Positions 1 through 24,491 are shown, numbered from the stretch's first letter. The stretch: DNA of 64,000 nt from GCF_056746865.1 NZ_CM163382.1, one strand, 5' to 3'. Notes: generated by a model not told the origin, from the sequence alone. Translations and numbers: made by a program.

Positions 1-398
1 GATGAATACGCGTTTACACCGTCCTCTTCAACAGTAATAAATTGCGGACGTAAATATCCTTCTTCAAATGCCAGAAAGCGGATCCCTTTAGACTTCGCCC
101 AACGTTTTGCTTCTTTGTGCAATGGACGGCAGTCACCAAAACAGAGAATGGTATCAAAGTCAAATTGCCGGTGGATATCTCGTAACCAACCAGGAAATTC
201 TTTCGGCGTTTGGTAATAAGCCAGATAGTGTCGATGACGGCAGTAAAAACGATCTCCTCCATTGAATACAACATTCACAGCGTTACGACCTAATGACTCT
301 AACCACTCGGCAACATCATTGAAGAAAGGTCCCATCGGTCCCTGCAATAGCAGATATTTTTTACCAGATAATAAAATGCTCAGAGCATTATTTTTCAT
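1..398 (-). CDS. kpsS: KpsS-like capsule polysaccharide export / beta-Kdo transferase, N-terminal ~132 codons only (ORF runs off the window start)
   Basis: Manual minus-strand translation from the ATG at 396-398 gives MKNNALSILLSGKKYLLLQGPMGPFF... and, at the window edge, ...GYLRPQFITVEEDGVNAYS with no stop before position 1. This matches the KpsS N-terminus as I recall it. The 86-aa track ORF at 14..274 is in a different frame. Confidence 0.75.
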   Translation of the reverse strand, partial: MKNNALSILLSGKKYLLLQGPMGPFFNDVAEWLESLGRNAVNVVFNGGDRFYCRHRHYLAYYQTPKEFPGWLRDIHRQFDFDTILCFGDCRPLHKEAKRWAKSKGIRFLAFEEGYLRPQFITVEEDGVNAYS

Positions 399-1560: not shown

Positions 1561-3708
1561 TCAGGGTAAAAGTGAACGAAAAAGTCTCAAAGTTTGAGCA
1601 AAAGAAACTAACTTAATTCGCCAACGCTGCCACCACTTAACACCTGCCGTCGTAGCTTTTTTTTGAGTAGATAATAGATGAATTAATTGTTCAGGGCTGC
1701 ACCAAAGCCCTGACTTCCAATCTATATAACGCGGATATTTTACTAATGTAATATATGCTAATGCACTCAACGTTAATGTACGATGGCGTCTTTCTGATGG
1801 ATGCTTATCTTGTGTTAATCCCCAACCACTATAAAACGGCTGTCCCCATGTCGTAACCTTCACTCCTTGAACTAGTGCCTCAAATCCACTAAGCGAAGTC
1901 ATGGTATGTAACTCATTTATGTGTGGATATAGCGATTCCAGTCTAATATCAGATACTTGGCTATCAACACAGTGTGCTAAACAACGCGCCGAAATAGTAC
2001 CTTTTCGATTGCCAGATACCACATCCGGATGAGGTTTGAACAGAATATGTGCATTCGGTTTAGCTTCACGCACAGCCCACAACAACTGTTCATTGCTGCG
2101 GATAATCGGGCTACCACACAAAATGGATGCATCACCATCAACCTGACCAACCACTAGAATCAACTCACGTCCGTCGTTAGGGGGCTCATATTCTTGTGTA
2201 CTCCCCACATTGTATTTACTGACTCGTGATGATTGTAATTGCGCTAATAATGACTCTGCGCGTGCTTCTTCTTTCGCATCTAAAACGTACGTAGTGAGTA
2301 ACTGCTCAAGCTTACTCGGACGGCGGCTATCAAAATAGATTCCAACGGGGTCAATCGAGAGTGATGAAGGTCGACATAAATTAGACCCCAATCCGTTGGA
2401 GCGGATAAAACCATCTTCAATCCGGATCACTGATTGCAGTTCAGGATAACGGTTTCCCCACACCAACACCTGTTCATCATCTTTTAACTGTGAGGGCACA
2501 GTACGAACAAAACAAAGTTCATCTGCCAAATACGCACAAAATGTGCGTATAAAAGCACGCTTCCACAGAGAAAAACCAACGAGATAAAGACGACGCCAAG
2601 GTTTGGGCTCTACCTGCTGCTGAGCCAAAATCGCTACAACATCTTCTACCTCACAACGTTTTCCCAATATAGGATCTAAATAACGCGGATAACGGATCAA
2701 CGCCGCCGCAACTAAGCGGGGCAATGAAATAGATGAAACGCCTTCGGCTGACATTGCTTCTTCACGGCGTATACAACGTTTACTGTCATGCGTTAACCCC
2801 CACCCAGCATAAAATGGCATACCGAAGCAATATACAGGTTTGCCCAACAGCAACGCTTCAAAGCCAACCTGCGATGAAACTGTGTACACCGCATCCACCA
2901 TACGAATTATTCTATGCGGATGGCAAGGTTCACTCACCACCTCAACATCAGCCAGTCGAGGATCACGCCCCACTAAACGTGCTAACACGCCGCTTTTTTT
3001 GCTAAAGCGTGTATCTGGGTGTGTTCGCAACAATAGACGCGCATTAGGGTGATTACGGCGAGCCTCGACCACCATAGAAACAAAATCAGCTTCGCAAGCA
3101 AGAGCCCCAGAAATTGACAAGTCTCCCGCTACTTGATCCACAAGCAAAATACGCGGTCTTGGATCATCCAGTAAACGTGCTAAGTTTGAATGAGCCGTGA
3201 GGGTGAATAACTCAGGTTGTATATGTGTCGGTAAATCTAAAGAAGGCCCGTCAGTAGCACGGACAGAGCCATTAAATGTATGCTCAGTGCTATTGGTATA
3301 GCAGTTATACTTGGTGATTCCTAAACGCAAAATATCAGAGATCAGATGCTCAGCGCGCGCAAGTAAAGCCGTATCAACAGGTTCAATAATAAGCTGTTCT
3401 AATTGACTCGTCTGATGTGCATCATAATATATCCCCAGAGGGTCAGCAATAAGAGAAACCGCCTTTCCTCCTTTTGCTGGGTGCCCGATATAGCCAATAA
3501 AACCATCTTCAAGTTGCCAATAAGATATTCCTAACTCTTGAGCTTTCTGTTTAATCTGCTTAGTATTAGATTTTTTTCCCCAGCCAACTAAAACGTCATT
3601 TTTAGAAAAAGCCTCGTCTCCTTTCATATAAAGCAATGGGTGACCAAGCATAGGCTCAATATTATTTTTTCTGGCAAGAATCCCTTTCGATCCCGTATAT
3701 AAATACAT
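1561..3708 (-). CDS. kpsC: KpsC-like capsule biosynthesis protein (tandem beta-Kdo transferase domains)
   Basis: 715-aa ORF with an internally duplicated module (LEDGFIGYIG...DPLGIYYDAHQTSQLEQLI and IEDGFIRSNGLG...DPVGIYFDSRRPSKLEQLL), typical of KpsC. It lies next to kpsS. The true start codon is uncertain. Confidence 0.8.
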   Translation of the reverse strand: MYLYTGSKGILARKNNIEPMLGHPLLYMKGDEAFSKNDVLVGWGKKSNTKQIKQKAQELGISYWQLEDGFIGYIGHPAKGGKAVSLIADPLGIYYDAHQTSQLEQLIIEPVDTALLARAEHLISDILRLGITKYNCYTNSTEHTFNGSVRATDGPSLDLPTHIQPELFTLTAHSNLARLLDDPRPRILLVDQVAGDLSISGALACEADFVSMVVEARRNHPNARLLLRTHPDTRFSKKSGVLARLVGRDPRLADVEVVSEPCHPHRIIRMVDAVYTVSSQVGFEALLLGKPVYCFGMPFYAGWGLTHDSKRCIRREEAMSAEGVSSISLPRLVAAALIRYPRYLDPILGKRCEVEDVVAILAQQQVEPKPWRRLYLVGFSLWKRAFIRTFCAYLADELCFVRTVPSQLKDDEQVLVWGNRYPELQSVIRIEDGFIRSNGLGSNLCRPSSLSIDPVGIYFDSRRPSKLEQLLTTYVLDAKEEARAESLLAQLQSSRVSKYNVGSTQEYEPPNDGRELILVVGQVDGDASILCGSPIIRSNEQLLWAVREAKPNAHILFKPHPDVVSGNRKGTISARCLAHCVDSQVSDIRLESLYPHINELHTMTSLSGFEALVQGVKVTTWGQPFYSGWGLTQDKHPSERRHRTLTLSALAYITLVKYPRYIDWKSGLWCSPEQLIHLLSTQKKATTAGVKWWQRWRIKLVSFAQTLRLFRSLLP

Positions 3709-3757: not shown

Positions 3758-4309
3758 TTAGATGAACAGCTCTGCGCTCTCTAATGACTTTGCAATACTA
3801 TCTTTTGCTGAAGTGAGAATGTCCGCCTTTAACTCGGGCCACCTAATACCAATTGTAGGATCATTCCATGCAATGCCTCTATCACTGGCAGGGGCATAAT
3901 AATTAGTTGTTTTATACAAAAATTCGGCCGATTCAGTCAGTGTTACAAAACCATGGGCAAATCCTTCCGGAATCCATAACTGTCGTTTGTTTTCCCCTGA
4001 AAGATGAACGCCAACCCATTGTCCGAAGCTCGGTGAGCTTTTGCGAATATCTACCGCAACATCAAACACTTCACCGGCTACACAACGCACTAACTTGCCC
4101 TGGGCATGGGGAGGTAACTGATAGTGCAAGCCACGCAGTACCCCTTTAGAAGATTTTGAGTGATTATCCTGCACAAAGGTAACTGGATATCCTACAGCCT
4201 CTTCAAACAACTTGTGATTAAAACTCTCAAAGAAAAAACCACGCTCATCTCCAAATACTTTTGGCTCAAAAATAAGCACACCAGGAATTGCTGTCTTGAT
4301 TACATTCAT
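3758..4309 (-). CDS. rmlC: dTDP-4-dehydrorhamnose 3,5-epimerase
   Basis: 183 aa, N-terminus MNVIKTAIPGVLIFEPKVFGDERGFF is characteristic of RmlC/RfbC. Last gene of an rmlB-D-A-C run. Confidence 0.9.
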   Translation of the reverse strand: MNVIKTAIPGVLIFEPKVFGDERGFFFESFNHKLFEEAVGYPVTFVQDNHSKSSKGVLRGLHYQLPPHAQGKLVRCVAGEVFDVAVDIRKSSPSFGQWVGVHLSGENKRQLWIPEGFAHGFVTLTESAEFLYKTTNYYAPASDRGIAWNDPTIGIRWPELKADILTSAKDSIAKSLESAELFI

Positions 4310-4374
4310 CTATATGCCCACATTTAATTAAATATTTTTAGGGGAAGCATATTCCCTCCCCCTTCTCAATTACA

Positions 4375-5253
4375 TCACGCCTTATCAATCATTTTTAATA
4401 AATATTGCCCATAGGCGTTTTTTGCCAACGGAGCAGCAAGCTCACGAACCTGGTCGGCACTAATAAACTTCTGGCGATAAGCAATCTCTTCCGGACAAGC
4501 CACTTTCAATCCCTGACGCGTCTCGATGGTCTGAATAAAGTTACTCGCTTCAATTAGGCTTTCGTGGGTACCGGTATCAAGCCAGGCATAACCACGCCCC
4601 ATCATTGCCACCGATAGATTGCCTTGCTCCAGGTAAATACGGTTCACATCGGTGATTTCCAACTCACCACGCGGCGATGGCTTGAGACCCTTGGCAACGT
4701 CCACAACGCTGTTGTCGTAGAAATAGAGGCCGGTGACTGCGTAGCTACTCTTAGGCTCCAGTGGTTTTTCTTCCAGTGAAATAGCGGTACCTTGATTATC
4801 AAATTCGACCACTCCATAACGTTCCGGGTCGTGCACATGATAGGCAAATACAGTAGCACCGGTCTCTTTGGCCGCGGCTGCCTCCAACTGTTTCTGTAGG
4901 TCATGACCGTAGAAGATGTTATCCCCCAGCACCAGTGCACACGGGGCTGAACCAATGAATTCTTCACCCAGAATAAAAGCTTGTGCCAACCCGTCTGGGC
5001 TTGGCTGAACCTCATATTGTAAATTCAGTCCCCAGTGGCTGCCATCACCCAGCAATCGCTGAAAGCGAGGAGTATCTTGTGGAGTGCTAATGATCAAAAT
5101 ATCGCGAATTCCAGCCAGCATCAGGGTGCTCAGCGGGTAGTAGATCATCGGCTTGTCATAGATGGGCAACAACTGCTTGCTCACCGCCATAGTAACCGGA
5201 TAGAGACGTGTACCAGATCCACCGGCCAGAATAATACCTTTACGTTTAGTCAT
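4375..5253 (-). CDS. rmlA: glucose-1-phosphate thymidylyltransferase
   Basis: 292 aa, [21 protein letters not shown]...[16 protein letters not shown] nucleotidyltransferase signature. Confidence 0.92.
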
Positions 5254-5333
5254 GATGCTTGTTTCTTATTTTTAAATTACATAAGAATAAAGTGGCTTGA
5301 GCCGCGCCTTTCTGTTTTATCCTCACCTGTGGT

Positions 5334-6221
5334 TTACTTCCCCATGATCTCAGTCAACATCCGCTCAACACCGACTGACCAGTCCGGCAAAACCAGATCA
5401 AATGTACGCTGGAATTTTTTAGTATCAAGTCGGGAATTATGAGGGCGTTTCGCCGGGGTCGGAAAGGCGCCTGTCGGCACTGCATTAAGCTGTGTGACTG
5501 CCAGTTCAACTCCTGCGTCTCTGGCTTTGTCAAACACCAACCGGGCGTAGTCAAACCAAGTGGTAGTACCGGAGGCAGCCAAATGGTACAGCCCGGCAAC
5601 GTCGGGTTTGCTCTGTGCAACTCGGATTGCATGGGCGGTACAATCGGCCAGCAACTCAGCTCCAGTTGGAGCGCCAAACTGATCATTAATGACCGATATC
5701 TCGCGACGCTCTTTGCCAAGACGCAGCATAGTTTTGGCGAAGTTGGCACCGCGCGCAGCATAAACCCAACTGGTACGAAAGATAAGGTGACGTGAGCAGA
5801 GTGCCGCACCGTGTTCCCCTGCCAGCTTGGTTTCGCCATAGACGTTGAGCGGGGAAATCACATCGGTTTCCACCCAAGGACGTTCACCACTTCCATCGAA
5901 AACATAGTCGGTGGAATAATGTACTAGCCACGCACCTAATGCTTCAGCTTCTTTGGCAATAACCGCCACACTAGTTGCATTGAGTAACTCGGCAAATTCC
6001 CGCTCACTCTCCGCTTTGTCGACTGCAGTATGGGCCGCTGCGTTAACAATCACATCCGGCTTGACGAGACGTACCGTTTCAGCCACCCCTGCAGAATTGC
6101 TAAAATCACCGCAATAGTCGGTGGAGTCAAAATCAACGGCAGTGATGTGCCCCAGAGGCGCCAATGCACGCTGCAGCTCCCATCCTACCTGACCATTTTT
6201 GCCAAACAACAGAATATGCAT
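5334..6221 (-). CDS. rmlD: dTDP-4-dehydrorhamnose reductase
   Basis: 295 aa, [24 protein letters not shown] RmlD-type N-terminus. Start overlaps the rmlB stop by 1 nt. Confidence 0.9.
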   Translation of the reverse strand: MHILLFGKNGQVGWELQRALAPLGHITAVDFDSTDYCGDFSNSAGVAETVRLVKPDVIVNAAAHTAVDKAESEREFAELLNATSVAVIAKEAEALGAWLVHYSTDYVFDGSGERPWVETDVISPLNVYGETKLAGEHGAALCSRHLIFRTSWVYAARGANFAKTMLRLGKERREISVINDQFGAPTGAELLADCTAHAIRVAQSKPDVAGLYHLAASGTTTWFDYARLVFDKARDAGVELAVTQLNAVPTGAFPTPAKRPHNSRLDTKKFQRTFDLVLPDWSVGVERMLTEIMGK

Positions 6222-7306
6222 CAGGTACGCTCCCTATAGTTTTGTTCAATCCAGGATTGGTAGGCACCACTCTTGACGTTGTTAATCCATTGTTGATTAT
6301 CCAGATACCACTGCACGGTCTTGCGAATACCAGACTCAAAAGTCTCCTCTGGCTGCCAATCCAACGCAGCGCTCATCTTGCAAGCATCAATCGCATATCG
6401 GCGATCGTGTCCGGGGCGATCCGCCACATAAGTAATTTGATCGCGATAAGAGCCAGCTTTCGGTACCATCTCGTCAAGCAGATCACAAATAGTATGTACT
6501 ACATCCAGGTTCTGCTTCTCGTTGTGACCGCCTATGTTATAAGTCTCCCCGACCAAGCCAGTGGTCACTACCTTGTAGAGTGCTCGTGCATGATCTTCCA
6601 CATACAACCAGTCACGAATTTGGTCACCTTTACCATAAACCGGCAGCGGCTTGCCATCCAGCGCATTGAGGATCACTAGCGGGATCAGCTTCTCGGGAAA
6701 GTGGTAAGGGCCATAGTTGTTGGAGCAGTTAGTGACAATGGTTGGCAGGCCGTACGTACGGTACCAAGCACGCACCAGATGATCGCTGGAAGCCTTGGAG
6801 GCAGAATAGGGACTGCTAGGAGCGTAGGAGGTAGTTTCGGTAAAGAGCGGCAATGCCTCACCGGAGGCTACTTCATCCGGATGGGGCAGATCGCCATATA
6901 CTTCATCGGTAGAAATATGGTGGAAGCGAAAGGCCGCCTTGCTCAACTCGCCCAGACTGCTCCAATAGGCGCGAGCCGCTTCCAGCAATGTATAGGTGCC
7001 TACGATATTGGTTTCGATAAAGTCGGCTGGCCCTGTGATAGAACGATCAACATGGCTTTCAGCAGCCAGATGCATCACGGCATCTGGCTGGTGCAGAGCA
7101 AACACCCGATCCAACTCAGCACGATTACAGATATCAACTTGTTCAAACGAATAACGCTCACTTGACGATACACTGGCCAAAGATTCCAAATTGCCAGCAT
7201 AGGTGAGTTTATCCAGATTGATAACGGAGTCTCCAGTATCACTAATGATATGACGCACCACGGCAGAGCCGATAAAACCAGCACCGCCAGTAACGAGAAT
7301 CTTCAT
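6221..7306 (-). CDS. rmlB: dTDP-glucose 4,6-dehydratase
   Basis: 361 aa, [21 protein letters not shown]ossmann motif plus extended-SDR body. First gene of the rml run. Confidence 0.92.
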
Positions 7307-8030
7307 ATATTTCGCTCTCTTATTTTACAATTAATAGCTATTAAAAATAAACTTGTTGACTCCGATATATTAGAAATATCGGGATACCGAACTAAATATT
7401 TTTATATGCTTTTGCCAAGCAGACTCTATATCCACCCTGTATCACTATGCTTTCTGGCATACAATATCCCATCATTGACACAATGATAAACATATAAATA
7501 AAGAAAATTTTAAATCATATAACCAAATTACTTTCACTTTATTATCAATAAGTATTTTGATAAGAATACCTATACCACAGGGAGCCCCCTGAAACATAAT
7601 ATTAGCGAAGAATGATAACTGATAGTTACCATCTTAGAGATAAAAACTTATTTGTGTGGCGGGCATGACATGCCAGAGAATAAAATAGACTCAAAAAAAA
7701 TCACTAAGGGAGTTATTTGCAGCAAGAGAATTTCTTAGTCACTTGATTCAAAACAATCAAATTAAAAAGCGTTTTGATTATTAGCCTTATTTTATATATT
7801 GTGTCGTTACAGATAAAGTAAAAAACACATAATGGCATTTTCGGTTGACATATGTATTAACATATATTGCTTTATCATATAACCATATTTCAATTCAACT
7901 TACACTCTCAAGTTAATTGAAGCAGGCAATGCCTAATATATTTTTGCATCATAACCTATGATTAATATTAAAACACCAATCAGTTCGATTTTTAAACATT
8001 CAATAGCACCAATTAAATAAAAATATCTTT

Positions 8031-9062
8031 TTACTCGACACCTACAATTTTACAAGCATATTTTTTAGCATTGAACGCCAACTCGCTACGTTTATGATCT
8101 GCACTAACAAGTAATGAAAGAGCTTTTATCCATATATGTGGGTCATTCTCCAGCAAGATTCCATTTACATTTTGTTCAATGAAGTCACTATATGGTACAC
8201 AATTACTATATAAACCTACAGCCCCCATTCTGACAAAATCATAAAATTTTACGGGGCCGCGAGCCGAATTAAAGTCAGAGTCAAGTAATGGTGCTAACCC
8301 GATATCCAGATGATGAGTCTTGGTATACGCAAGATAATTTTGCCAACTCATCGGATGCAGTACTGAAACTCTTGGTAGGTCACGATAATATTTATAAATA
8401 TCATGCTCGCCAAAAATTTCAAAGCTGGCACGGGGACATTCTCCCAATACCCCCTCTACGATTTGTCTCAACCAATATTTTTCTTCCCGATGAGAACTTG
8501 AGCCATGATAAGCGATTTTTACTGATCGATGTGTTTCAATGAGTGCCAGTGACGGTTTAGCAGAAACAATCTCCGGGTTAAGATGTGCATATTTATTAGC
8601 CAAATAGGCAGTTGAAACCCAAATGTTATCACAATATTGCGTAATCCATCGATGCTGAGCCGCCGACCTCCTTATTATCTTGGTACGATACTCTTTTGGT
8701 AACGTAGATAGTGCAGTCGGGTCAAACAGGTCGTCATCCATAAAATAAACAATTCGAGAAAACCTGTCGTTATATCTTTCTATGTGCTGTTGCCATTTTG
8801 GGGAGATGAATCTAATGACGACAAGGGCAGATCCTCTAGGAATAAATATATCAGTGGATGCTAATGTGTCGATAAAATGACATTCTGCATCAGGAAACCG
8901 ACTTATAATAGCCGATTCAAAATAGGCTAATGTAGGTGATTTTCCCTCATGTAATATAAACAATCGTTCAAAGTTAATCTCAGAGCTTTGCTGACTTCTA
9001 TAACTCTGTTTATTTAATTTACGATAAGGCTTAAATAGTTTCCTGCGAATTAATTCATCCAT
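8031..9062 (-). CDS. hypothetical capsule region-2 protein, possible glycosyltransferase
   Basis: 343-aa ORF inside the serotype region, overlapping the upstream gene by 13 nt. No motif I can name with confidence. Confidence 0.4.
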   Translation of the reverse strand: MDELIRRKLFKPYRKLNKQSYRSQQSSEINFERLFILHEGKSPTLAYFESAIISRFPDAECHFIDTLASTDIFIPRGSALVVIRFISPKWQQHIERYNDRFSRIVYFMDDDLFDPTALSTLPKEYRTKIIRRSAAQHRWITQYCDNIWVSTAYLANKYAHLNPEIVSAKPSLALIETHRSVKIAYHGSSSHREEKYWLRQIVEGVLGECPRASFEIFGEHDIYKYYRDLPRVSVLHPMSWQNYLAYTKTHHLDIGLAPLLDSDFNSARGPVKFYDFVRMGAVGLYSNCVPYSDFIEQNVNGILLENDPHIWIKALSLLVSADHKRSELAFNAKKYACKIVGVE

Positions 9063-11071
9063 GGCAATACTATATTAGGAGCTCTACTTAAAGAGAAATC
9101 AGGACGTTCATAACTCAAATTTTGGTTGTAGGCTGGATCGTGTTTAAGTGCACATGCCCATCGTTTTTTCATATAGCGCAACTCAGATTTCGCTCGTATC
9201 TGCTGTTGTTTTGATACATCTTTACCACGGGAAATAGACTCATGATGATACAATTCAGCGAAGGGAGTCCAGATTACTCTCCAGCCAGCATCTCGAACTC
9301 TGAGACAATAATCTACGTCATTAAAAGCTATCGGCAAATTCGTTTCATCAAGTCCTCCGAGCGCCAGATATAACTCTTTATGAGTCAATAAACAAGCTGC
9401 AGTCACAGCTGACAGCTCTTGGGCACTAACAGCCCTACGCTGATATCCAGGATCGTTAGCTGACAAACCATTATGAAAATGATCTGCACAACCGCCAGGG
9501 CCGACAGCATCGCCTGCATGCTGAATCAAGCCATTTCCGTAATACAGCTTTGCTCCTACCACACCCACGCCGGGGCGTAATAAATGAGAAACCATTTCAT
9601 CCAGCCAGTCAATACTGATTACCTGAGTATCATTATTCAGCAAACATATCATATCTCCATGTGCGTTTCTCACTGCCAGATTGTTGATGGCTGAATAGTT
9701 AAACGGTTGATCATAAGAAATCACCCTAACGCCATAAACCTGTTCGATATGAGCAAGATAAGCAAGCGTCTCCTCCTCATCGCTCTGATTATCCATCACT
9801 ATGACTTCCATATTGGCATATTGCGTCTTTTGTATCAGGCTTTCGATACAAGGGCGTAAATGAGCAATACCATTTCTAGTAGGGATAATCACTGAAACCA
9901 ATGGCAATTGCGCTGGCAACGGCCAGCGCCAACGACATACACCATGAGGTGCTGCCTCAATGCTCACTCCTGATGGCAGTAAATCTTCTTTATCTTTCAG
10001 CGACTCAAAATCATCCGAAATCAACGCTCTTGCAGGCAAATGCATCATCAATGATGGAATATGGACTATCTGTTTCGGTTCACACATCTTTGCCAACTGT
10101 AGCCACCACTGATGACATGCCGCCGAATCAAAGGGAACACGGCCAGCACCATGTTCACGCCACAAACCACACCAACTAATATAGTTTTGGCTCTGTAGCA
10201 GCGTTTCATTCCAATCAGGTTTAAAGTTGGGAGAGTGACGTTCGCCTCTCTCGTCAAGCAGATCGTGATCACCGTATATCCATAAACAATCAGGATTCTG
10301 GCGTAACTGGTGGGCAACCCAAAATAAGGCGCCGGGCGAAACCACTGCCCCTACAGGCAACACCCACTGCCATTCGCCGCCTGACTGACTGGAGATTTCT
10401 GGATATGCACTATGCTCCTGCAGACTTATATTGCTTGCCGGATAACAGAGTGCCTGAATACTCTCCAGGGTCTTGTTGCGGCTCTGTTCATCCCCAACGC
10501 CAACAAGATGCAAACAGAAACGTGGTAATGTGCCCCAGCGAGCCAGCTGGCGCTTAATCAGCTTGTATTCGGCGGGTTCAAGGGTGTCGAAGTCTGCTAG
10601 CCACTCATCATAGCTATTGAGTGGCTTATCATCGCGAACTCTGCTGACAAGTTGGTAAGCCTGCTGCAAGTCCGTGAGCCACAAATGCCATGAAAGGCCT
10701 AACCTTTTGCGTCTGGACTTCGTTAAGCGTCGGTAAAAAGGCAAAACCCGGCGCAATCGACGCCAGAGACTCTCGGCGCGTGATACACAACAAAGCTGAG
10801 CAATCTCAACATTACACTCAGCGCCCTTAGTACTTGCCAGCAAAGACAAATGACTAGCTCCCGTGGGTAGATAAACCAGCTCCAGCAACGTGCCTCGACG
10901 AGTGACCGGCAACATCTGTTCATGCCATATTCCTTGTCCGCATTGCCAGCGCAGAAGAGTTTCACCTCGAGTTTGAGTCGTCGACACGCGCCCCCGAATC
11001 AGAAGCCAACCAGCATGAAGAGAAAACGAGTCTGGCAATGTCAGAGGCTGCCAATCGCGATAGCTACACAT
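9050..11071 (-). CDS. two-domain GT2-family glycosyltransferase; N-terminal GT domain looks degenerate
   Basis: 673 aa. C-terminal half has VSVIIPTRNG...VMDNQSDEEE...NYSAINN...LLNNDTQV GT2 motifs. Paralogous along its length to the 805-aa protein at 16457..18874 (for example YGDHDLLDERGERHSPNFKPDWN vs YSDEDKINARGERFDPHFKSDWN). Confidence 0.65.
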   Translation of the reverse strand: MCSYRDWQPLTLPDSFSLHAGWLLIRGRVSTTQTRGETLLRWQCGQGIWHEQMLPVTRRGTLLELVYLPTGASHLSLLASTKGAECNVEIAQLCCVSRAESLWRRLRRVLPFYRRLTKSRRKRLGLSWHLWLTDLQQAYQLVSRVRDDKPLNSYDEWLADFDTLEPAEYKLIKRQLARWGTLPRFCLHLVGVGDEQSRNKTLESIQALCYPASNISLQEHSAYPEISSQSGGEWQWVLPVGAVVSPGALFWVAHQLRQNPDCLWIYGDHDLLDERGERHSPNFKPDWNETLLQSQNYISWCGLWREHGAGRVPFDSAACHQWWLQLAKMCEPKQIVHIPSLMMHLPARALISDDFESLKDKEDLLPSGVSIEAAPHGVCRWRWPLPAQLPLVSVIIPTRNGIAHLRPCIESLIQKTQYANMEVIVMDNQSDEEETLAYLAHIEQVYGVRVISYDQPFNYSAINNLAVRNAHGDMICLLNNDTQVISIDWLDEMVSHLLRPGVGVVGAKLYYGNGLIQHAGDAVGPGGCADHFHNGLSANDPGYQRRAVSAQELSAVTAACLLTHKELYLALGGLDETNLPIAFNDVDYCLRVRDAGWRVIWTPFAELYHHESISRGKDVSKQQQIRAKSELRYMKKRWACALKHDPAYNQNLSYERPDFSLSRAPNIVLPWMN

Positions 11072-11174
11072 AATATAACTTACAGTCCAAAGTAACAGAT
11101 GGGGGATACAGATCCTTATTAGCAGGCCTGTAGATAAGAGCAGAAATAAACACCAAAGCGCTTGCTCAATATAT

Positions 11175-12143
11175 TCAAACCATCCATTTCTTCATTTTTT
11201 TTTTGAACCAAGAACCAGTAGGAATAGGTTCAACTGCTGATAACTCAGTCAACTTCACACTTAATCGTTCCATTTCAGCTTTTACTTGTCCTGAGAATGC
11301 GGCAGCGAGAAGGCACTCTTCATCATTACGATCATGTGCCTTGAAATAATCTTTATGCTTCACTCGATTAGCAGTAGCAGCACTACCACGCAGATGCTTG
11401 CCCAACAAGAATTCCTCAAGTGATTTAACTGCATAGTGATTTACCCTGACACCGCTCCAAATCACTTCAGCACTAACTCCTTTACCATGCCTCGGGTGCA
11501 GAATCAAATCACGACCTAACACATCAATATATCGACCATAACGCAAATCAGCATAATGCGGATTATGAAAGCGGTTAACTCGTTCTGGTTTGACCACACT
11601 TTTGAAGTTATGATGAACGTTAAAGGGTTGCGGGGCACGATAGGTAAAACGTTCAATAACCAACCCCTCTTCAGCAAACAGTTCACCACTAGAACCAAAA
11701 TTTGCCCAATTCAATGCAATAGCGCTGACACTCTCATCCTGAAACTTTTCAGAAAAAAAATCTGACAATTTGGTATCCGATTCAAGTGGCAATAAAAATT
11801 CATCAGCATCTATAAATGCAAGCAGGTCTATGTCTCTGGGACAGCTACGTAAAATATGTTCATATGCAGGTAATTGTGGCTTTTGATTCACCAAAATCGG
11901 TTGATCGAACATCTTCACAATACCTAAGCGAGCGAGGGACAATAGCAACTCTCGACTACCATCACGACTACCATTATCTGCAATAATAAACCCATCAACA
12001 CCTAATACTCGATGGTAAGCAATCCATTCAAGTAAACTTGAATACTCATCCTTGATAATAGCGGCTATATAGAGTTTCAAATTATCATCCAGCAAAAATG
12101 TATCAATGCCGATACTATCGGCATTGATACTCAATTTTATCAT
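11175..12143 (-). CDS. glycosyltransferase (GT2/GT92-like fold)
   Basis: 322 aa with LLEWIAYHRVLGVDGFIIADNGSRDGS. Paralog of the N-terminal domain of the 409-aa protein at 15216..16445. Confidence 0.55.
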   Translation of the reverse strand: MIKLSINADSIGIDTFLLDDNLKLYIAAIIKDEYSSLLEWIAYHRVLGVDGFIIADNGSRDGSRELLLSLARLGIVKMFDQPILVNQKPQLPAYEHILRSCPRDIDLLAFIDADEFLLPLESDTKLSDFFSEKFQDESVSAIALNWANFGSSGELFAEEGLVIERFTYRAPQPFNVHHNFKSVVKPERVNRFHNPHYADLRYGRYIDVLGRDLILHPRHGKGVSAEVIWSGVRVNHYAVKSLEEFLLGKHLRGSAATANRVKHKDYFKAHDRNDEECLLAAAFSGQVKAEMERLSVKLTELSAVEPIPTGSWFKKKMKKWMV

Positions 12144-12586
12144 CAGGCAGGAGAAAAAAATAACCCGTCCAACCAGGTGATCACCCCATCTGATTCCAGC
12201 CCAATAATTATTTTGGTAGAAAATGGAATACTGATATCAAATCCGCACCGAAGTTTTTGATGTTTTTCAGGTGGTTGTTTTAGTATAGCTGAAATAACAT
12301 CAGGCCGCTTTGTATTGAAAGGAAAACTGTATGTCATATGATCAATTTTAACAGCAACATGGGAATCTGCTTCCCCTTCAGCCACTAACCACCCCCGAAG
12401 TACAATCCGGCCATTGACGATCTTTAGTGGTTGTTGTTCTGATGGCGAATCAATATTCCAATATAATTGACCGCCAGACTTGACGAGTGGCGATTTTGTG
12501 AGGGTATAAATAACAGCCATACGATTCCTTCTATTTGAAATATTGCTCAAATAACTCAGACTATCTCCAGATTGCCTTTCAAGCAA
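12143..12586 (-). CDS. hypothetical protein; stand-alone ~90-aa module shared with two neighbouring proteins
   Basis: 147-aa ORF. Shares IVLRGW...RPDV...CGF motifs with the C-terminus of the 409-aa protein and the N-terminus of the 426-aa protein. Confidence 0.4.
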   Translation of the reverse strand: MLERQSGDSLSYLSNISNRRNRMAVIYTLTKSPLVKSGGQLYWNIDSPSEQQPLKIVNGRIVLRGWLVAEGEADSHVAVKIDHMTYSFPFNTKRPDVISAILKQPPEKHQKLRCGFDISIPFSTKIIIGLESDGVITWLDGLFFSPA

Positions 12587-12713
12587 GATAATCCCAAGTT
12601 TTTATGGGATATACATAACTATGGATACAACCAAGAAAAATGATTTTGCCTCAATGGAAGAAATTACGGTAATAGAATTCCATTATCCCATTTACAATCC
12701 ACTGCTACGTTAT

Positions 12714-13880
12714 TTAATCAGCCCCAAAAAGATCTCTGGTATAAACCTTTTCGGCTACATCGACTAATTCAGCAGCCATGCGATTACAGAGAATAACATC
12801 GCTCAGCGCTTTAAACTCAGCCAGTTCCCGAATCACTCGGGAATTGAAGAATGTATCTTCATGAATAGTCGGTTCAAAGACCACTACCTCAATACCCTTG
12901 GCCTTAATACGCTTCATGACTCCCTGTATCGCAGAAGAGCGGAAATTATCTGAGCCAGCCTTCATCACCAAACGATGGATGCCCACCACCTTAGGTTTAC
13001 GACGCAATACGCTATCAGCAATAAAGTCTTTGCGAGTGCAATTAGCATCGACAATGGCGCGGATCAGATTGTTGGGTACCTTGTTGTAGTTGGCCAGCAA
13101 CTGCTTGGTGTCTTTGGGCAGGCAATAGCCACCATAACCAAATGAGGGGTTGTTATAATGGCTACCGATACGCGGATCCAAGCCAACCCCTTCGATAATC
13201 TGACGACTGTCCAAGTCATGCGACTGAGCATAGGTGTCCAACTCATTGAAATAGGCCACCCGCATTGCCAGATACGTATTAGCAAACAACTTGATGGCCT
13301 CCGCCTCGGTGCTGCCCGTTAGCAGTACCGGAATGTTCTGCTTGATCGCCCCTTCTTGCAACAATTCAGCAAATCGTTTGGCCCGCTCACTACGCTCACC
13401 CACCACAATACGGGAAGGGTATAGGTTGTCATACAGCGCCTTGCCCTCACGCAAGAACTCGGGAGAGAAGATCAGATTATCGGTGCCTAACTCACTACGC
13501 AGCCGCTCGGTAAAGCCTACCGGAATGGTAGACTTGATCACCATCACTGCATTAGGGTTGATACTGATCACATCGCGAATCACCCACTCGACTGAGTCGG
13601 TGTTAAAGTAGTTGGTCTCGGGATCATAATCGGTGGGGGTAGCAATAATCACAAATTCGGCCGCCTCATACGCCTCGAATTTATTCAGCGTCGCCTTAAG
13701 GTTCAGATGATTGTTGGCCAGATAGGCCTCCAGCTCTTTATCTGCAATGGGGGATTGACGGCGATTAATCAGTTCGACTTTCTCTGGTAATATATCCAGT
13801 GCAATTACCTGATGATGTTGAGCTAATAGCACTGCAATAGAAAGACCTACATAACCAGTTCCAGCTATAGCTATTTTCAT
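12714..13880 (-). CDS. ugd: UDP-glucose 6-dehydrogenase
   Basis: [24 protein letters not shown]-binding N-terminus and overall UDP-glucose/GDP-mannose dehydrogenase family features. Start placed at the internal Met (ATG at 13878-13880); the track start is at 13910. Confidence 0.85.
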
Positions 13881-13928: not shown

Positions 13929-15209
13929 TTATGAGGGTGCAGATTCAGTATTATATAATTTACTCATTTTTTCATGATAAAATAAAAGCGAAGGGCAAGA
14001 ATTATACTCAAAATTATTAATCTTTTTCTTGTATATTTTTCTAACAATTTCAGAAGTAAAACAGAAATTGTTTTTAGGTGGCTTCACAATAAATCTAGAA
14101 GCGACCTGAATAATTATTTTTGATGGCTTTTCATGAGCCACCACATCAAGATCCACACTCGCACCAGAAAATACATGGATTACTCTTTTATATTTATTTA
14201 CAAAATATGGAAGCATATTTATAGAATAAGAATCACCAAAAAAAACCACGACACTATCATCTATTTTGCGATTATTTTCAAATACTCTCACCCATCCTCT
14301 ATTATTAACCCCGTTATCATAAACAATATAATTATCAATACCAGAGAAATCAGCCTTCAATATATCCTGCGAAATCGGAGGGGTTGTCTTAATTCCTAAA
14401 TCGCCATAACTCCTTTTAATGTAAAAAGGGAAAATAGAATTATCGAGGACCGTGTTGTTTTTATTTAAGATATTATCTATATATTTAGCCACCTGCAATG
14501 CAGCAAAATCAGACCAGTGCGTATCAACTTTAGAATATGAGCTATCACCGATATCTCTTAATATATCTAAAGGATAAACTATATCAGTACAAATGGAGAG
14601 TAACTGTTCAACTGGTGTCTCTGGCGATTTTTTAAACGGATAGTATGATGACAATACATTCTCTTTGGCTGGAGCCAAACAAAAAACATATTCAATCCGT
14701 TGATCATTCATATATTTCCGAATAAAATCTAGATAGTTCTTCCAAACAGAAATATCATCATTTGTAATTTTTTTAATTCCAATAAACTGCTCTTTACTCT
14801 GATTGGTATCATGATCCAAGAATAAATACCCATTGTGTCCAAAAAGCACTTTTTGAGGAGGAGTTATATCTACTCTCGCTATTACATAATCAACATTATT
14901 AATAGTTGTTCCAATACTAAACGACTCCAAACTAGTAATAGCATAACTAAAACCACACATAGTATCACTAACATTTCCATTGAAATGTCTTACTACGTCT
15001 AATCTGGGTGTATTATAGTCAAGAATTAATTTCTCTCCATTCTTAACTATATATATATTATTCTGACAACCTTTATAGAGTAGCCATCCCGATAAATGAA
15101 TCGCAGAGCAATTTGACTTAAAATAACTACATGTCCGAGGACTATCAATTGAAAACTTGAGCCCGGTAATATCTGGTCTTATAACAGATAGTTTGATATC
15201 ATATTTCAT
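13929..15209 (-). CDS. putative SGNH/AlgJ-like polysaccharide-modifying acyltransferase with N-terminal shared module
   Basis: 426 aa. N-terminus carries the HLSGW...RLDV...CGF module. The body has DTHW and FFGDSYS motifs reminiscent of SGNH/AlgJ-type O-acyltransferases. Assignment by motif only. Confidence 0.45.
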   Translation of the reverse strand: MKYDIKLSVIRPDITGLKFSIDSPRTCSYFKSNCSAIHLSGWLLYKGCQNNIYIVKNGEKLILDYNTPRLDVVRHFNGNVSDTMCGFSYAITSLESFSIGTTINNVDYVIARVDITPPQKVLFGHNGYLFLDHDTNQSKEQFIGIKKITNDDISVWKNYLDFIRKYMNDQRIEYVFCLAPAKENVLSSYYPFKKSPETPVEQLLSICTDIVYPLDILRDIGDSSYSKVDTHWSDFAALQVAKYIDNILNKNNTVLDNSIFPFYIKRSYGDLGIKTTPPISQDILKADFSGIDNYIVYDNGVNNRGWVRVFENNRKIDDSVVVFFGDSYSINMLPYFVNKYKRVIHVFSGASVDLDVVAHEKPSKIIIQVASRFIVKPPKNNFCFTSEIVRKIYKKKINNFEYNSCPSLLFYHEKMSKLYNTESAPS

Positions 15210-15215: not shown

Positions 15216-16445
15216 TTAAACCAATTTTGAAACTAATTCTTCATTGAGTGGAAATTCTAAACTAACTAATCCAGCCTGATTTAAAGTATATATCTGAACG
15301 CTTGAGATAAGTTGTGTAGGAAGCGACAACGAACATATAAACCCGCACCCAATTCCATTACCAATCCCAGCTTTTTCTACATCAGGCCGATCATAAAATG
15401 ATAGTGAGTCTGGGCGTATTAAAAAAGAGTTATTTATAACCATTACAATACTACTACATGGTTTTTTATCATTATCTACTGCCCAACCTTTTAGAACTAT
15501 AGCACGTCCATCTTTTTTAATTGTATCAATAAATCCAACCCCCATACTTTTAGTAGTCTTATAAAGTGGTTCACTTCTGCTTTCTATGAGCGGCTGATAT
15601 CCACAATCAAGCAATTTCTCATTAATGGTTGCGATTTGACATTTTACTTTTCTCAGAAACCATAATGGAATATGTTGCTCAATATTATTCAAATCATGAT
15701 TTTTAAAAAATTGCAGATTTCTACCGAGACTATTTTTTAGTGTTGTAGCTCTACCTCGAGCGACCTTTTTATTCAAGAATTCAGCCTTTGACTTAATTAC
15801 ATAATGATTAAGTCTGATAACTGACCAGTCAATCACCTCACTTATTCCATCATAACTATGATGTTCTTCTCCACTTGGCATAACAAATTTCTTATCTGAA
15901 TTAATAATAAAAGCATGGGGTGTTGGTCCTGCTTTGATAACATCAGAAACACGAACTATTGACTTATAATGCCTATTAACAGGATGCAGATCAGCAGCTC
16001 TCTTAACGAATCGTTCTATAACAAGACCGTCATCAGGTAAAATTGAATGAGATGAGCCATATACAGCCCAGTTGAGTGATATTGCACCAATCGCCTGATC
16101 ATTTAATAGCGGCATCAGTTTGTTTAAACCATCTTCATAGTCATTTGGTGAAATAAATTCATCTGCATCAATAAATGCAACCCATCTATCTTTATCAAGC
16201 ATTGACAATATTTTATTGTACGCCCCCAATTGTGGGGGAATACCATCTTGTGTCGGATAGTCAATCCTTTTGATAATATTCGCTTTATCTAGAAAATATA
16301 AAAGCTCACTACTTCCATCACTACTAATATTGTCGGCAATATATATATCATTAATGCCAAGAGCCATATGGTAAGCAATCCACTCAACAATGAATGGGTA
16401 TTCATTTTTTAAAATTGCACCTATTGAAAGCATCGCTGTTATCAC
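15216..16445 (-). CDS. glycosyltransferase (GT2/GT92-like) fused to C-terminal shared module
   Basis: 409 aa with VEWIAYHMALGINDIYIADNISSDGS at the N-terminus and IVLKGW...RPDV...CGF at the C-terminus. Confidence 0.55.
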   Translation of the reverse strand: MITAMLSIGAILKNEYPFIVEWIAYHMALGINDIYIADNISSDGSSELLYFLDKANIIKRIDYPTQDGIPPQLGAYNKILSMLDKDRWVAFIDADEFISPNDYEDGLNKLMPLLNDQAIGAISLNWAVYGSSHSILPDDGLVIERFVKRAADLHPVNRHYKSIVRVSDVIKAGPTPHAFIINSDKKFVMPSGEEHHSYDGISEVIDWSVIRLNHYVIKSKAEFLNKKVARGRATTLKNSLGRNLQFFKNHDLNNIEQHIPLWFLRKVKCQIATINEKLLDCGYQPLIESRSEPLYKTTKSMGVGFIDTIKKDGRAIVLKGWAVDNDKKPCSSIVMVINNSFLIRPDSLSFYDRPDVEKAGIGNGIGCGFICSLSLPTQLISSVQIYTLNQAGLVSLEFPLNEELVSKLV

Positions 16446-16456: not shown

Positions 16457-18874
16457 TTAAATGGAGAAGTCTTCTCTATCTTTAGATAGGTTTGGACTGT
16501 AGAAGGGATCGAGTTCGAGATGTTTACCCCATTTGCTTTTCATAAAGTTCACTTCCCTGGCAAATCTGGCTATTTTCTCCGGGGAATCTTCGGCACCTCG
16601 ACTAATTGATTCATAGTGGTAAAGCTCGGCATAAGGCGTCCAGAGATTACGGTACCCCGCTTCGCGTACTTTCAGACAGAAGTCCACATCATTAAAAGCA
16701 ACATGCAAATTCTCTTCATCCAACCCGGCAACTTCCTCATAAATATTTTTGCGAATAAGCAGGCAAGCAGCCGTGACGGCCGAGAGAGTTTGTGTCAACA
16801 ACAAACGGCTGAAATAACCCGGATGATGGCGAGGGTACTGTTTATGAGAGTGTCCCGCTACACCACCAATACCGAGAATAACTCCGCCATGTTGTAAAGT
16901 ATCATTACTGTAATAGAGCTTGGCCCCGACACAACCAATCTCTGGTCGCATGCAGTGACTCACCATCTCGGTCAGCCAATCCGGGTTGATTACCTCGACA
17001 TCATTATTGACCAAGCCGATAATGGCCCCCTTGGCGTGACGAACGCCAAAGTTGTTGATGGCCGAGTAGTTAAAGGGGTGGTCATAGCGCAATACTCTGA
17101 CCCGGCTGTCTTCCTGCTGGATCTGGGCAAAGAAATCGAGAGTCTCCTGCTCCACGCTGCCATTATCGAGAATCAGGATCTCGAAATGGGTATAGGTACT
17201 GCGATCGATGATGCTACGCACCGCAGTTTCGGTTAGAGCACGACGATCCCGAGTAGGAATAAGCAAACTAACCAGTGGGGCTGGTTCTGAAATAGGGTAA
17301 CGTACCCGATAGGTGTTGGGAACCAACCCCGCCTCAACCGTAACCTCAGGTTGCTGCTTAGAAAAATAGTCGCGTAGCGCTTTGATGCCAGCCTCCGTGG
17401 TGTAGCTCTTCTCGCCAGAAGCCAAAGCTGTAGAGCCCTCAATGGTACGCCAGTGGTAAAGCACACGGGGAATGTGAACTATCTGCTCTGCAGCTACATG
17501 AGGCAGACAACGCAGCAGCAGATCCTGATCCTGACTTCCTTCTACTCCCAAACGGAATCCCCCAATCTGTTGCAGCAGAGAGCGACGATAGACCCCGAGA
17601 TGCGAGACATAGTTTTGCGAAAAGAATAAATCTGGATTCCAATCGCTCTTGAAATGAGGATCAAAACGCTCACCGCGGGCATTAATTTTATCTTCGTCAC
17701 TGTAAAGGATCTGGGTATGAGGCTGCTCACAAATAGCCTGAGCCATAAATAGCATAGCATGCTCTGGCAACACATCATCATGATCCAACAGAGCTACGAA
17801 ATCCCCTTTTGCAATTTCGAGAGCACTGTTGGAAGCAGCCGAAATATGACCATTGTGCTTTCGGTAGACAACTTTGATTCGGCTATCCTTGGCCTCGTAT
17901 TCGCGCAGTACGCGTTGCACATGTTCTTTTGGCGAACGATCATCGGCAATACAGAGTTCCCAATGGGGATAGCTTTGAGCCAGGACAGAATCCAGACAGG
18001 CACGCAAGTAGATCTCCGCTGGATTATAAACAGGAATCACAATAGATATAACTGGAGGGTGAGTCATACTGGCAAGCATCAGACTCACCTCTTTGTTGCC
18101 AGGCAACGAAGGTAATTCCACCGTTTCTATCCATTCCTCATAACCGACAGAAAACGGGGTAACGCTGAACGTTTCGTTATAGAATGCCTGCAGGCGCTCT
18201 ATTGACATATCGCCATTGTCCATCAATATGGATTTTTTGATTTTTTCTAGCGGCATGTCACGATAGCTTTGGTGTTCTTTTTGAATGCGAGCCAATAGTG
18301 CAGACTCAACTACTTTCACATCAACAGCTGCTATTTCAAACTGATTAATTGCAAATGTTGCTGCCTGTTCTAATGGATCAAATCGTAATGCAACAAGAGG
18401 CGATTCCAGATAGAACAAACGACTGACGCTGACCGCTCGTTTATATGGCAACGTTACTGTTTCAAACTCATTGAACCCTTTACCTGTATCCAAATATAAC
18501 TTAGCTAATCCTTGCTTTGGTTGGCAATTAATAGAGATATTAAATTGATACCATCCCTTGCTAATATTTGAGAGCTGCTCCAAATCAATAATGAAAAATG
18601 GATCATTTCCCTCTGCAACCCAACTTTGTGAATTATCTATATCTATCGAGAGCTGATTTGTTGCCAGATAGGGCAGCACAACTGTATTTTGCATTTTACT
18701 CACTGCAGGAGAAACGTCCCATGCTTCGCATGGTTTCCTACCGAGTAACATCCCATAACGCTTAAAATGTTCTCTTGCTGACAACCCGGTCTGTTTCACA
18801 TCCAAATAGTTATGCAGATACCAATGTTCATCAAAGTGAGCTAGCAACTCGTCTTGGTGATTTTTAACCATCAC
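16457..18874 (-). CDS. dual-domain GT2 glycosyltransferase, candidate capsule polymerase
   Basis: 805 aa with two GT2 cores (ISIVIPVYNP...LLDHDDVL and VSLLIPTRDR...ILDNGSVEQE...NYSAINN...LVNNDVEV). N-terminal HWYLHNYLDVKQTGLSAREHFKRYG motif. Strong RBS (AGGGAG) before the start. Confidence 0.7.
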   Translation of the reverse strand: MMVKNHQDELLAHFDEHWYLHNYLDVKQTGLSAREHFKRYGMLLGRKPCEAWDVSPAVSKMQNTVVLPYLATNQLSIDIDNSQSWVAEGNDPFFIIDLEQLSNISKGWYQFNISINCQPKQGLAKLYLDTGKGFNEFETVTLPYKRAVSVSRLFYLESPLVALRFDPLEQAATFAINQFEIAAVDVKVVESALLARIQKEHQSYRDMPLEKIKKSILMDNGDMSIERLQAFYNETFSVTPFSVGYEEWIETVELPSLPGNKEVSLMLASMTHPPVISIVIPVYNPAEIYLRACLDSVLAQSYPHWELCIADDRSPKEHVQRVLREYEAKDSRIKVVYRKHNGHISAASNSALEIAKGDFVALLDHDDVLPEHAMLFMAQAICEQPHTQILYSDEDKINARGERFDPHFKSDWNPDLFFSQNYVSHLGVYRRSLLQQIGGFRLGVEGSQDQDLLLRCLPHVAAEQIVHIPRVLYHWRTIEGSTALASGEKSYTTEAGIKALRDYFSKQQPEVTVEAGLVPNTYRVRYPISEPAPLVSLLIPTRDRRALTETAVRSIIDRSTYTHFEILILDNGSVEQETLDFFAQIQQEDSRVRVLRYDHPFNYSAINNFGVRHAKGAIIGLVNNDVEVINPDWLTEMVSHCMRPEIGCVGAKLYYSNDTLQHGGVILGIGGVAGHSHKQYPRHHPGYFSRLLLTQTLSAVTAACLLIRKNIYEEVAGLDEENLHVAFNDVDFCLKVREAGYRNLWTPYAELYHYESISRGAEDSPEKIARFAREVNFMKSKWGKHLELDPFYSPNLSKDREDFSI

Positions 18875-23006: not shown

Positions 23007-23613
23007 AAACTTCTAATTTACCATCACGTAACAAGATGCCCATATCGCATTGTTGTCGTAGATTTTTCATATCATGTGAAACCATAATCAAACTAGCTGT
23101 TTCTCGCTTTTTGTTAAATACATCAATACATTTTTGTTTAAAACGTGCATCACCTACTGAGGTAATTTCATCGGTAAGATATATATCAAAATCAAAAGCC
23201 ATACTAACAGCAAAAGAAAATTTTGATTTCATGCCGCTAGAGTATGTTTTAATAGGCAACTCATAATGTTGTCCAATTTCAGAAAACTCTTTAACCCACT
23301 CTTCTACGGTGCTTGTATCGCGTACACCATGAATGCGGCAAACAAATCGCGTGTTTTCACGACCAGTCATACTACCTTGAAATCCCCCACCTAGTGCTAG
23401 AGGCCAAGATACTCGGCAGAGACGAGTTACTTTCCCCCTGTTAGGCGTATCCATCCCTCCTAACAAACGTAACAAAGTAGATTTTCCTGCTCCATTGATA
23501 CCTAGAATACCTATATTACGGTCCCTTGGTAGCTCAATATTTACATTCCTCAGGACATAATTTCGTCCAAATTTAGTCGGATAATATTTTGATACATTAT
23601 CAAGAATAATCAT
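22963..23613 (-). CDS. kpsT: capsule ABC transporter ATP-binding protein
   Basis: 216 aa, Walker A GINGAGKSTLL, ABC signature region. Adjacent to the ABC-2 permease. Confidence 0.85.
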   Translation of the reverse strand: MIILDNVSKYYPTKFGRNYVLRNVNIELPRDRNIGILGINGAGKSTLLRLLGGMDTPNRGKVTRLCRVSWPLALGGGFQGSMTGRENTRFVCRIHGVRDTSTVEEWVKEFSEIGQHYELPIKTYSSGMKSKFSFAVSMAFDFDIYLTDEITSVGDARFKQKCIDVFNKKRETASLIMVSHDMKNLRQQCDMGILLRDGKLEVFDNIDDAIKIYQSL

Positions 23614-23624
23614 TTTTCTTAACG

Positions 23625-24425: not shown

Positions 24426-24491
24426 TAATACTTACCCAAATAATCGGCTCATTATAGCAACGAGCCTCCGATTAAAATTTAAAACACTCAA

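Follow-up and report, generated by a model that had tools for sequence, protein, structure and literature searches.

The window analysed here, a stretch of 64,000 nucleotides from NZ_CM163382.1 (assembly GCF_056746865.1), carries a capsule (kps) locus at its left end. All large open reading frames (ORFs) between positions 1 and 26237 lie on the minus strand and follow the order kpsDMTE, region 2, kpsCS, which is also the order annotated in the strains PF9285, M12 and LR-27. Region 2 (3758-21606) includes the nucleotide-sugar genes rmlBDAC and ugd together with a series of glycosyltransferase (GT) genes. The interval 3758-13880, on which the original prediction of a capsule containing L-rhamnose and glucuronic acid (GlcA) was based, is only its promoter-distal part. 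No ORF corresponding to kpsF or kpsU was found between 1 and 27600; kpsF is also missing from the group 3 reference strains of the kTYPr catalogue, a study in which the K reference strains of the World Health Organization were sequenced and 85 transporter-dependent K-types catalogued (Miravet-Verde et al., 2026, PMC13171606). The locus has as neighbours the yghD/gsp type II secretion genes, sslE and the glc operon, so that it occupies the serA-linked kps site; a remnant of kpsM lies upstream of it. The gene layout, the lack of kpsF and kpsU and the gsp neighbourhood identify an Escherichia coli group 3A capsule locus. Judging from its sequence, 1-26237 on the minus strand is very probably an intact locus of this group, dependent on an ATP-binding cassette (ABC) transporter and of the K98 genotype ('K98' in kTYPr, 'TBA_6' in Hong et al., 2023). 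The features of the locus are collected in Table 1.

When 5,426 complete E. coli genomes were searched by megablast with region 2, five had 100% coverage at 99.7-99.8% identity; they came from cattle, sheep and one human. One of them is strain PF9285 (CP038791.1), which over 27.3 kb shows 99.71% identity with the window, the main difference being a 1.2-kb copy of the insertion sequence (IS) IS5 upstream of kpsD, at about window position 27275, which is present in PF9285 and A_5 and absent from the window. CP038791.1 is listed as TBA_6 by Hong et al. (2023, PMC10433991). These authors described TBA_6 as devoid of the block of three transferase genes that is conserved in group 3 because wsaE is disrupted by an IS in the prototype LR134240.1 (Hong et al., 2023, PMC10433991), whereas the block is intact in the window and in PF9285. 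The locus is thus an ordinary and known one, already catalogued twice, as TBA_6 in 2023 and as K98 in 2026.

Since none of the accession numbers of Hong et al. was found in the kTYPr supplements, TBA_6 was mapped to K98 through ORF lengths and identity tables. K98_7 has the same length as the 405-amino-acid (aa) PF13704 protein of the window, and K98_12 the same length as its 322-aa GT-A protein, the orthologues of which have 300-306 aa in K96, K145, K149 and K114. The K-specific ORFs 5 to 14 of K98 (ten, plus rfbBDAC) fit products of 909, 804, 405, 426, 388, 48, 125, 322, 673 and 343 aa, as obtained from gene calls on exact-match contigs. With the limits used in the catalogue, for which kpsD is taken from its shorter start (537 aa) and kpsS is included to its end, the locus measures 26,931 bp in K98 and 26,929-26,930 bp in the window and PF9285 (by arithmetic from the coordinates). 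As a fingerprint, the proteins of the window were compared with the K149 reference NZ_AP027506.1 and the result was set against the published K149-versus-K98 identities. The numbers of mismatches are the same as published for ugd (17), the 125-aa ORF (14), the 322-aa transferase (14) and RfbB (2), the paralogue pairs give identical values (31.818 and 36.655), and the remaining proteins are 1-4 residues off the published values. The window therefore has the gene set and gene order of K98/TBA_6, with a few aa differences, deduced indirectly, in the methyltransferase, the dual GT2 protein, WsaE, the 343-aa protein and RmlD, RmlA and RmlC.

Table 1. Features of the K98-type capsule locus and its upstream flank (positions counted from the first nucleotide of the window).
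Feature	Coordinates	Strand	Evidence
kpsS, first 132 codons, cut by the left end of the window	1..398	-	132 codons compared identical to the N-terminus of PF9285 KpsS
kpsC, 715 aa, beta-Kdo linker transferase	1561..3708	-	PF05159 Capsule_synth, E-value 3.7e-75; 100% identical to KpsC of K96 strain M12
rmlB-rmlD-rmlA-rmlC (rfbBDAC), dTDP-L-rhamnose pathway	3758..7306	-	Four NCBIfam equivalog/subfamily cut-offs passed; 100% identical to the proteins of K96 strain M12
rmlC	3758-4309	-	TIGR01221, 276 bits (cut-off 156)
rmlA	4375-5253	-	PRK15480, 598 bits (cut-off 588)
rmlD	5334-6221	-	PRK09987, 576 bits (cut-off 308)
rmlB	6221-7306	-	PRK10084, 757 bits (cut-off 649)
AT-rich spacer, 724 bp, between the three-transferase block and rmlB	7307..8030	.	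GC content about 0.33; 100% identical to M12
343-aa GT-B-like protein (wckE-type), third gene of the conserved three-transferase block	8031..9062	-	Weak TuaH match; 100% identical to K96_11; Gene3D 3.40.50.2000 (GT-B) for the orthologue K10_13
wsaE, 673 aa, two putative GT-A modules, conserved block	9050..11071	-	PF00535/PF13641 at aa 392-611
322-aa GT-A protein (wckC/wckI-type), first gene of the conserved block	11175..12143	-	PF13704/PF01697 (GT92); length as K98_12
125-aa ORF (corresponds to K98_11)	12143..12520	-	88.8% identical to K149_9, equal to the published K149_9-K98_11 value
ugd, UDP-glucose 6-dehydrogenase supplying UDP-GlcA, 388 aa from ATG (GTG ORF runs to 13910)	12714..13880	-	PRK15057, TIGR03026
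426-aa AlgX/SGNH-like protein, putative O-acetyltransferase, K98-specific cassette	13929..15209	-	Sub-threshold PF16822; homology to K96_7; motifs; name given to the identical PF9285 protein by the Prokaryotic Genome Annotation Pipeline
405-aa GT-A transferase, K98-specific, candidate for the GlcA side branch	15216..16433	-	PF13704/PF01697; length as K98_7
804-aa protein, two GT2 modules, candidate rhamnan backbone polymerase	16457..18871	-	Two PF00535/PF13641 stretches
909-aa class I methyltransferase with long coiled coil and C-terminal domain	18877..21606	-	PF13578 at aa 65-181; SMC-like coiled-coil matches at aa 272-793 (~500 residues)
kpsD-kpsM-kpsT-kpsE, export genes (region 1)	21747..26237	-	Poly_export/SLBB, ABC2_membrane and ABC_tran matches; BexC/CtrB/KpsE TIGR01010; 99-100% identical to M12
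123-aa lipoprotein-like ORF directly upstream of kpsD	26264..26635	-	Signal peptide and lipobox ITAC (…FFITAC); hypothetical in the annotation of all relatives
ops/JUMPStart-like GGCGGTAGCAT followed by a kpsM-like pseudogene remnant	27360..27590	-	Exact GGCGGTAG at 27570-27577; sequence reading; annotation of relatives

The presence of a complete rmlBDAC set and of a ugd gene within the serotype-specific region, on which the earlier composition call was built, is confirmed by curated models: both lie intact on the minus strand, at 3758-7306 and 12714-13880. RmlA, RmlB, RmlC and RmlD are all full length and score above the curated cut-offs. Ugd matches PRK15057 from end to end (E-value 2.7e-212; 704.9 bits versus an equivalog cut-off of 757) and passes the subfamily model TIGR03026 (330.6 versus 189.8); it is 86% identical to the ugd product of K96. 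In the K96 strain M12, transposon insertions in the kps-embedded rmlD, rmlA, rmlC and ugd genes lead to unencapsulated cells. These data bear on the objection that rml and ugd could serve the synthesis of the O-antigen or of another lipopolysaccharide and not that of the capsule. O-antigen loci of E. coli often carry rml genes, the chromosome has its own ugd, with matches at 72-74% nucleotide identity elsewhere in other genomes, and cross-supply does occur, as K12 capsules borrow the rml genes of the O-antigen (kTYPr, PMC13171606). However, the genes of the window are all on one strand and are enclosed by kpsE and kpsC of the kps locus, the O-antigen locus is located outside of the window, and in M12, with Rml proteins that match those of the window at 100% identity, the capsule requires kps-embedded rmlD, rmlA, rmlC and ugd. 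We consider a role in lipopolysaccharide instead of capsule synthesis to be very improbable.

Between ugd and the rml genes lies the conserved block encoding the 322-aa transferase, WsaE and the 343-aa protein. According to Hong et al. (2023, PMC10433991), rmlBDAC and this block are kept in nearly every group 3 cluster, irrespective of the repeat unit. The 322-aa transferase is 68% identical to K96_9 and 92-96% identical to its orthologues in TBA_2 and TBA_5. The 343-aa protein has no match in Pfam. WsaE has a single Pfam GT2 match, yet its residues 17-661 align with the 804-aa dual GT2 protein of the same locus at 34% identity, and the InterPro rows of kTYPr give two modules for its orthologue; for these reasons it was counted as two GT-A modules. 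Mutants of wsaE in K96 are unencapsulated. On this count there are four glycosyltransferase modules in 3758-13880 and about seven in the whole of region 2, so that the 'at least five' glycosyltransferase domains previously put forward are right for region 2 and too many for the flagged interval. The genes of region 2 that are located upstream of ugd, outside of that interval, encode the 426-aa, 405-aa, 804-aa and 909-aa products, and it is these four by which the locus is best distinguished. Next to the block, the 125-aa ORF, for which no family match was found, shares one base with the start codon of the gene for the 322-aa transferase. Its counterparts in the identity tables of kTYPr are 60-98% identical among clusters that carry methyltransferase and dual-GT2 genes, both chromosomal and plasmid-borne; K96 has none.

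The conservation of the block raises another explanation for the rml genes, namely that those embedded in kps loci mainly serve a linker or adaptor, conserved and containing rhamnose, that the three-gene block would make, in which case they would say nothing of the repeat unit. This idea, proposed by Hong et al., agrees with the 92-100% protein identity of rmlBDAC and the three-gene block across K10, K96, K3, K98, K114, K145 and K149, whatever the repeat. Nevertheless, every structurally known group 3A polymer (K3, K10, K54/K96 and K98) has rhamnose in its repeat, and the K98 backbone is itself a rhamnan, so that the repeat unit alone explains the conservation of rml. We regard a role confined mainly to the linker as a real possibility, if a somewhat doubtful one. 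The two roles do not exclude each other, and the predicted composition is unchanged by a role of rml in the linker.

The original prediction also offered, as a guess, a match to the K54-type capsule. The nucleotide comparison with K-type loci that it had proposed was run against M12 (K96/K54), K145/TBA_2 and K149/TBA_5, and shows a locus unlike K54. Positions 1-11072 (kpsS to wsaE) and 21746-28100 (kpsE to the upstream flank) are 99.3-99.6% identical to M12 at the nucleotide level, whereas the central 10.7 kb are not. With the K54/K96 type, which makes the linear GlcA-rhamnose disaccharide polymer, the window does share its group 3A frame, flanks more than 99% identical to M12, a ugd gene and an AlgX-like gene. 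At the level of gene content, however, an assignment to this type is refuted by the central 10.7 kb, and even the shared genes have diverged, with 86% identity for ugd, 68% for the 322-aa transferase and 27% for the AlgX-like protein; we find it hardly tenable. In place of the 337-aa coiled-coil protein, the 737-aa WcaA and the 294-aa AlgX-like protein of K96, the window encodes the 909-, 804-, 405- and 426-aa proteins. In the set K96_5 to K96_11 (337-aa protein, 737-aa WcaA, 294-aa AlgX-like protein, ugd, 300-aa transferase, WsaE and 343-aa protein), three of seven have no orthologue in the window, with partial matches of 23-38% identity; the polymerase-like WcaA (737 aa) is just 23% identical to the 804-aa protein. 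Conversely, K96 lacks the methyltransferase domain, the 405-aa transferase and the 125-aa ORF, all three of which are present in the window. The K54/K96 polymer contains rhamnose and GlcA as does that of K98, but its repeat is a linear disaccharide.

The closest relatives delimit what is specific to K98. Compared with K145/TBA_2 and K149/TBA_5, the window exhibits 95-99.5% nucleotide identity except at 13881-16456, the sole segment unique with respect to both, which holds the 405-aa and 426-aa genes. The K98-defining cassette thus begins one base beyond the upper end of the interval that had been flagged. At the corresponding position, K149/TBA_5 encodes a single 400-aa transferase, and K145 a 387-aa transferase and a 326-aa epimerase. 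Both share with the window the methyltransferase, dual GT2, ugd and rml genes and the three-gene block, and K149 alone shares the 125-aa ORF. In K149/TBA_5, the 343-aa gene and rmlB are separated by an additional gene, for an alpha/beta-hydrolase, which is absent from the window, where no remnant of it was found in the 724-bp spacer. K3, another group 3A type, shares the methyltransferase-coiled-coil and dual-GT2 genes, the three-gene block and rfbBDAC, and its poly-rhamnose backbone is reported to be identical. In contrast, it has a hexulosonic acid side branch and other central genes (K3_7 to K3_12) where the window has ugd and the genes of the 405-aa transferase and the 426-aa protein. Genes 5 and 6 are common to K3, K145, K158, K149 and K98 at 88-99.8% identity.

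The published polymer fits this gene content. In a sentence of a preprint from the kTYPr laboratory, which cites Hahne et al. (1991), the K98 polymer is said to bear GlcA side branches on a neutral poly-rhamnose backbone, which is identical to that of K3. The texts of the EK3D paper and of a 2023 survey of surface polysaccharides do not mention K98. The prediction of rhamnose and GlcA thus agrees with the polymer of the K-type to which the locus is matched, and L-rhamnose, GlcA and a branched repeat are all supported for this locus by sequence comparison. Branching had been predicted as well, from the extra glycosyltransferases that were taken to indicate a more complex repeat; the outcome is in line with the published K98 polymer, but the argument fails. 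K96 has a simple GlcA-rhamnose disaccharide repeat and yet six predicted glycosyltransferases, and the three-gene block is conserved regardless of the repeat, so that extra transferases are no proof of a complex repeat unit. The rml genes and the additional transferases should rather be seen as a conserved feature of group 3 than as a sign of serotype or of repeat complexity.

These comparisons suggest a pathway for the assembly of the polymer. The curated models identify RmlBDAC as the source of dTDP-L-rhamnose and Ugd as that of UDP-GlcA; that a capsule needs these supply genes is known from the genetics of K96, whose orthologues are identical (Rml) or 86% identical (Ugd). KpsS and KpsC would build the linker of beta-linked 3-deoxy-D-manno-oct-2-ulosonic acid (Kdo) on a lipid carrier, as is established for this class. 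The three-gene block would then add the conserved adaptor hypothesized by Hong et al., which probably contains rhamnose. The candidate for polymerization of the poly-rhamnose backbone is, by elimination, the 804-aa dual GT2 protein, because K3 and K98 share both the backbone and this gene, whereas K10 and K96 have the three-gene block and neither the gene pair nor the backbone. The orthologues of this protein in K3, K145, K158, K149 and K98 are at least 92% identical and are labelled as rhamnosyltransferase-type by CDD and PANTHER in the kTYPr tables. Its best relative of solved structure is a bifunctional chondroitin synthase, a similarity that speaks for a two-module polymerase architecture and not for a donor specificity. 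The 405-aa protein is the likely GlcA branch transferase, as it is the only transferase unique to K98; it is just 29-39% identical to any transferase of K96, TBA_2 or TBA_5. No hydrophobic or transmembrane segment was detected in any region-2 protein, which fits assembly in the cytoplasm followed by export of the finished polymer, presumably by KpsMT, KpsE and KpsD.

The other product of the K98-specific cassette, the 426-aa protein, would modify the polymer, probably by O-acetylation. Its score against PF16822 (ALGX) is 16.1 bits, below the cut-off of 26.5, but it is 27% identical (E-value 8e-31) to K96_7, which passes this model, and contains DTHW at aa 229 and GDS at aa 325, which we take to be the motifs of an AlgX-type catalytic triad. 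It could therefore be a distant AlgX-type protein; O-acetylation of the polymer as its role is a guess from sequence. Both this protein and its K96 homologue (L002, 14287-15171) keep DTHW and a Ser motif ~96 residues later, and neither has a signal peptide or a transmembrane segment. Transposon sequencing classed the K96 homologue among the genes needed for capsule, although the source texts speak of no O-acetyl group in K96. Sequence searches against solved structures gave matches only at chance level for the 426-aa, 405-aa and 909-aa proteins, and NCBIfam gave no match for the 426-aa, 405-aa, 125-aa and 123-aa proteins.

The 909-aa protein, which combines a methyltransferase with a long coiled coil, could speculatively cap the chains and set their length. 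In ABC-transporter-dependent O-polysaccharide systems with coiled-coil terminators, such as WbdD of E. coli O9a and ORF6 of Klebsiella pneumoniae O7 (PMC11231755), as in the window, a methyltransferase domain joined to a long coiled coil stands beside a two-module polymerase of the dTDP-rhamnose type, with cytoplasmic assembly preceding ABC export. By analogy, we tentatively suggest that the 909-aa protein is a WbdD-like chain terminator and ruler that, together with the adjacent two-module rhamnosyltransferase, sets the chain length of a capsule anchored to Kdo-lipid, although we consider this rather unlikely. The likeness is one of domain layout and not of compared sequences or structures; the profile searches found no kinase domain in the 909-aa protein, the window encodes its methyltransferase separately from its polymerase, the K98 polymer is not known to carry a methyl group at its end, and the product of WbdD-type systems is an undecaprenol-linked O-antigen and not a capsule anchored to Kdo-lipid. 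If the suggestion were true, variation in coiled-coil length among group 3 clusters would tune the chain length of the capsule and would not be neutral. The C-terminal part of the protein (aa 715-901) is 38% identical to the 337-aa K96_5, which has counterparts of the coiled coil and of the C-terminal domain but no methyltransferase. A motif of 41 residues (51% identity) is also shared between this C-terminus (aa 830-870) and the N-terminus of the 804-aa protein (aa 13-53), and is found at the N-terminus of K96 WcaA (L002, 15238-18481) as well.

A locus that is silent or defective is also conceivable, as inactivation is frequent among its relatives: an IS interrupts the methyltransferase gene in strain 98232 (L007), another lies beside wsaE (L010), wsaE is IS-disrupted in the TBA_6 prototype LR134240.1, and at least 12% of the K96 isolates examined carry likely inactivating kps mutations. 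In the window, however, 17 of 17 complete genes are full length (kpsS being cut by the window end), the IS5 upstream of kpsD is absent, and kpsC is identical to that of wild-type M12, so that its 7A tract is not frameshifted. A locus that is present but makes no capsule is thus improbable here.

Several points weigh against the assignment to K98 and against the polymer and pathway attached to it. The assignment is based on a fingerprint drawn from published tables and not on an alignment with the K98 references (NZ_QYZN01000023.1, SSI 85381), and, as judged indirectly, a few residues seem to set five proteins of the window apart from those of the K98 representative. The ugd score falls narrowly under the PRK15057 equivalog cut-off. 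The K98 structure is taken from one preprint sentence citing Hahne et al. (1991), and the donor specificities of the transferases come from elimination only.

For this window, the overall importance of the result is small, as both locus and polymer are already known. The structure of the K98 polymer was reportedly solved in 1991 by Hahne and colleagues. The practical value lies in the K-type that can now be assigned to the strain, and in the narrowing of the K98-defining DNA to a 2.6-kb cassette of two genes at 13881-16456. The comparison of gene contents suggests a family of capsules with a rhamnan backbone (K3, K98, K145, K149 and K158) that differ by one swapped side-chain cassette. Such a model would be useful for choosing phage, vaccine or antibody targets.

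Some additional features of the locus and its surroundings can be mentioned. The 123-aa ORF directly upstream of kpsD, which has no family match, is kept in K96, K145 and K149 strains and may be an unrecognised lipoprotein of group 3 capsules. Further upstream, ~1.1-1.3 kb from kpsD, an ops/JUMPStart-like GGGGCGGTAGCAT is followed by a kpsM-like remnant, at a place matching which an 'ABC transporter permease, frameshifted, partial' is annotated in relatives. The ops motif has two exact sites in the 64 kb, no more than expected by chance (31 of 100 shuffles), and the site at 27570 is meaningful only because of its position and of the kpsM remnant after it. Together, GGGGCGGTAGCAT and the remnant look like a relic of the leader of a group 2-type region 3. 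At the other end of the locus, kpsC and kpsS are separated by a non-coding, AT-rich gap of 1.16 kb (398-1561; GC content about 0.29-0.35), which is 100% identical to M12 and 99% identical to K149. Finally, a small cluster that has nothing to do with the capsule lies beside yghO, at about 57000-61300 as placed by collinearity with L012; in the relative A_5 it is annotated as encoding a serine palmitoyltransferase (spt), an acyl carrier protein, a NAD-dependent epimerase/dehydratase and a fatty acyl-AMP ligase.

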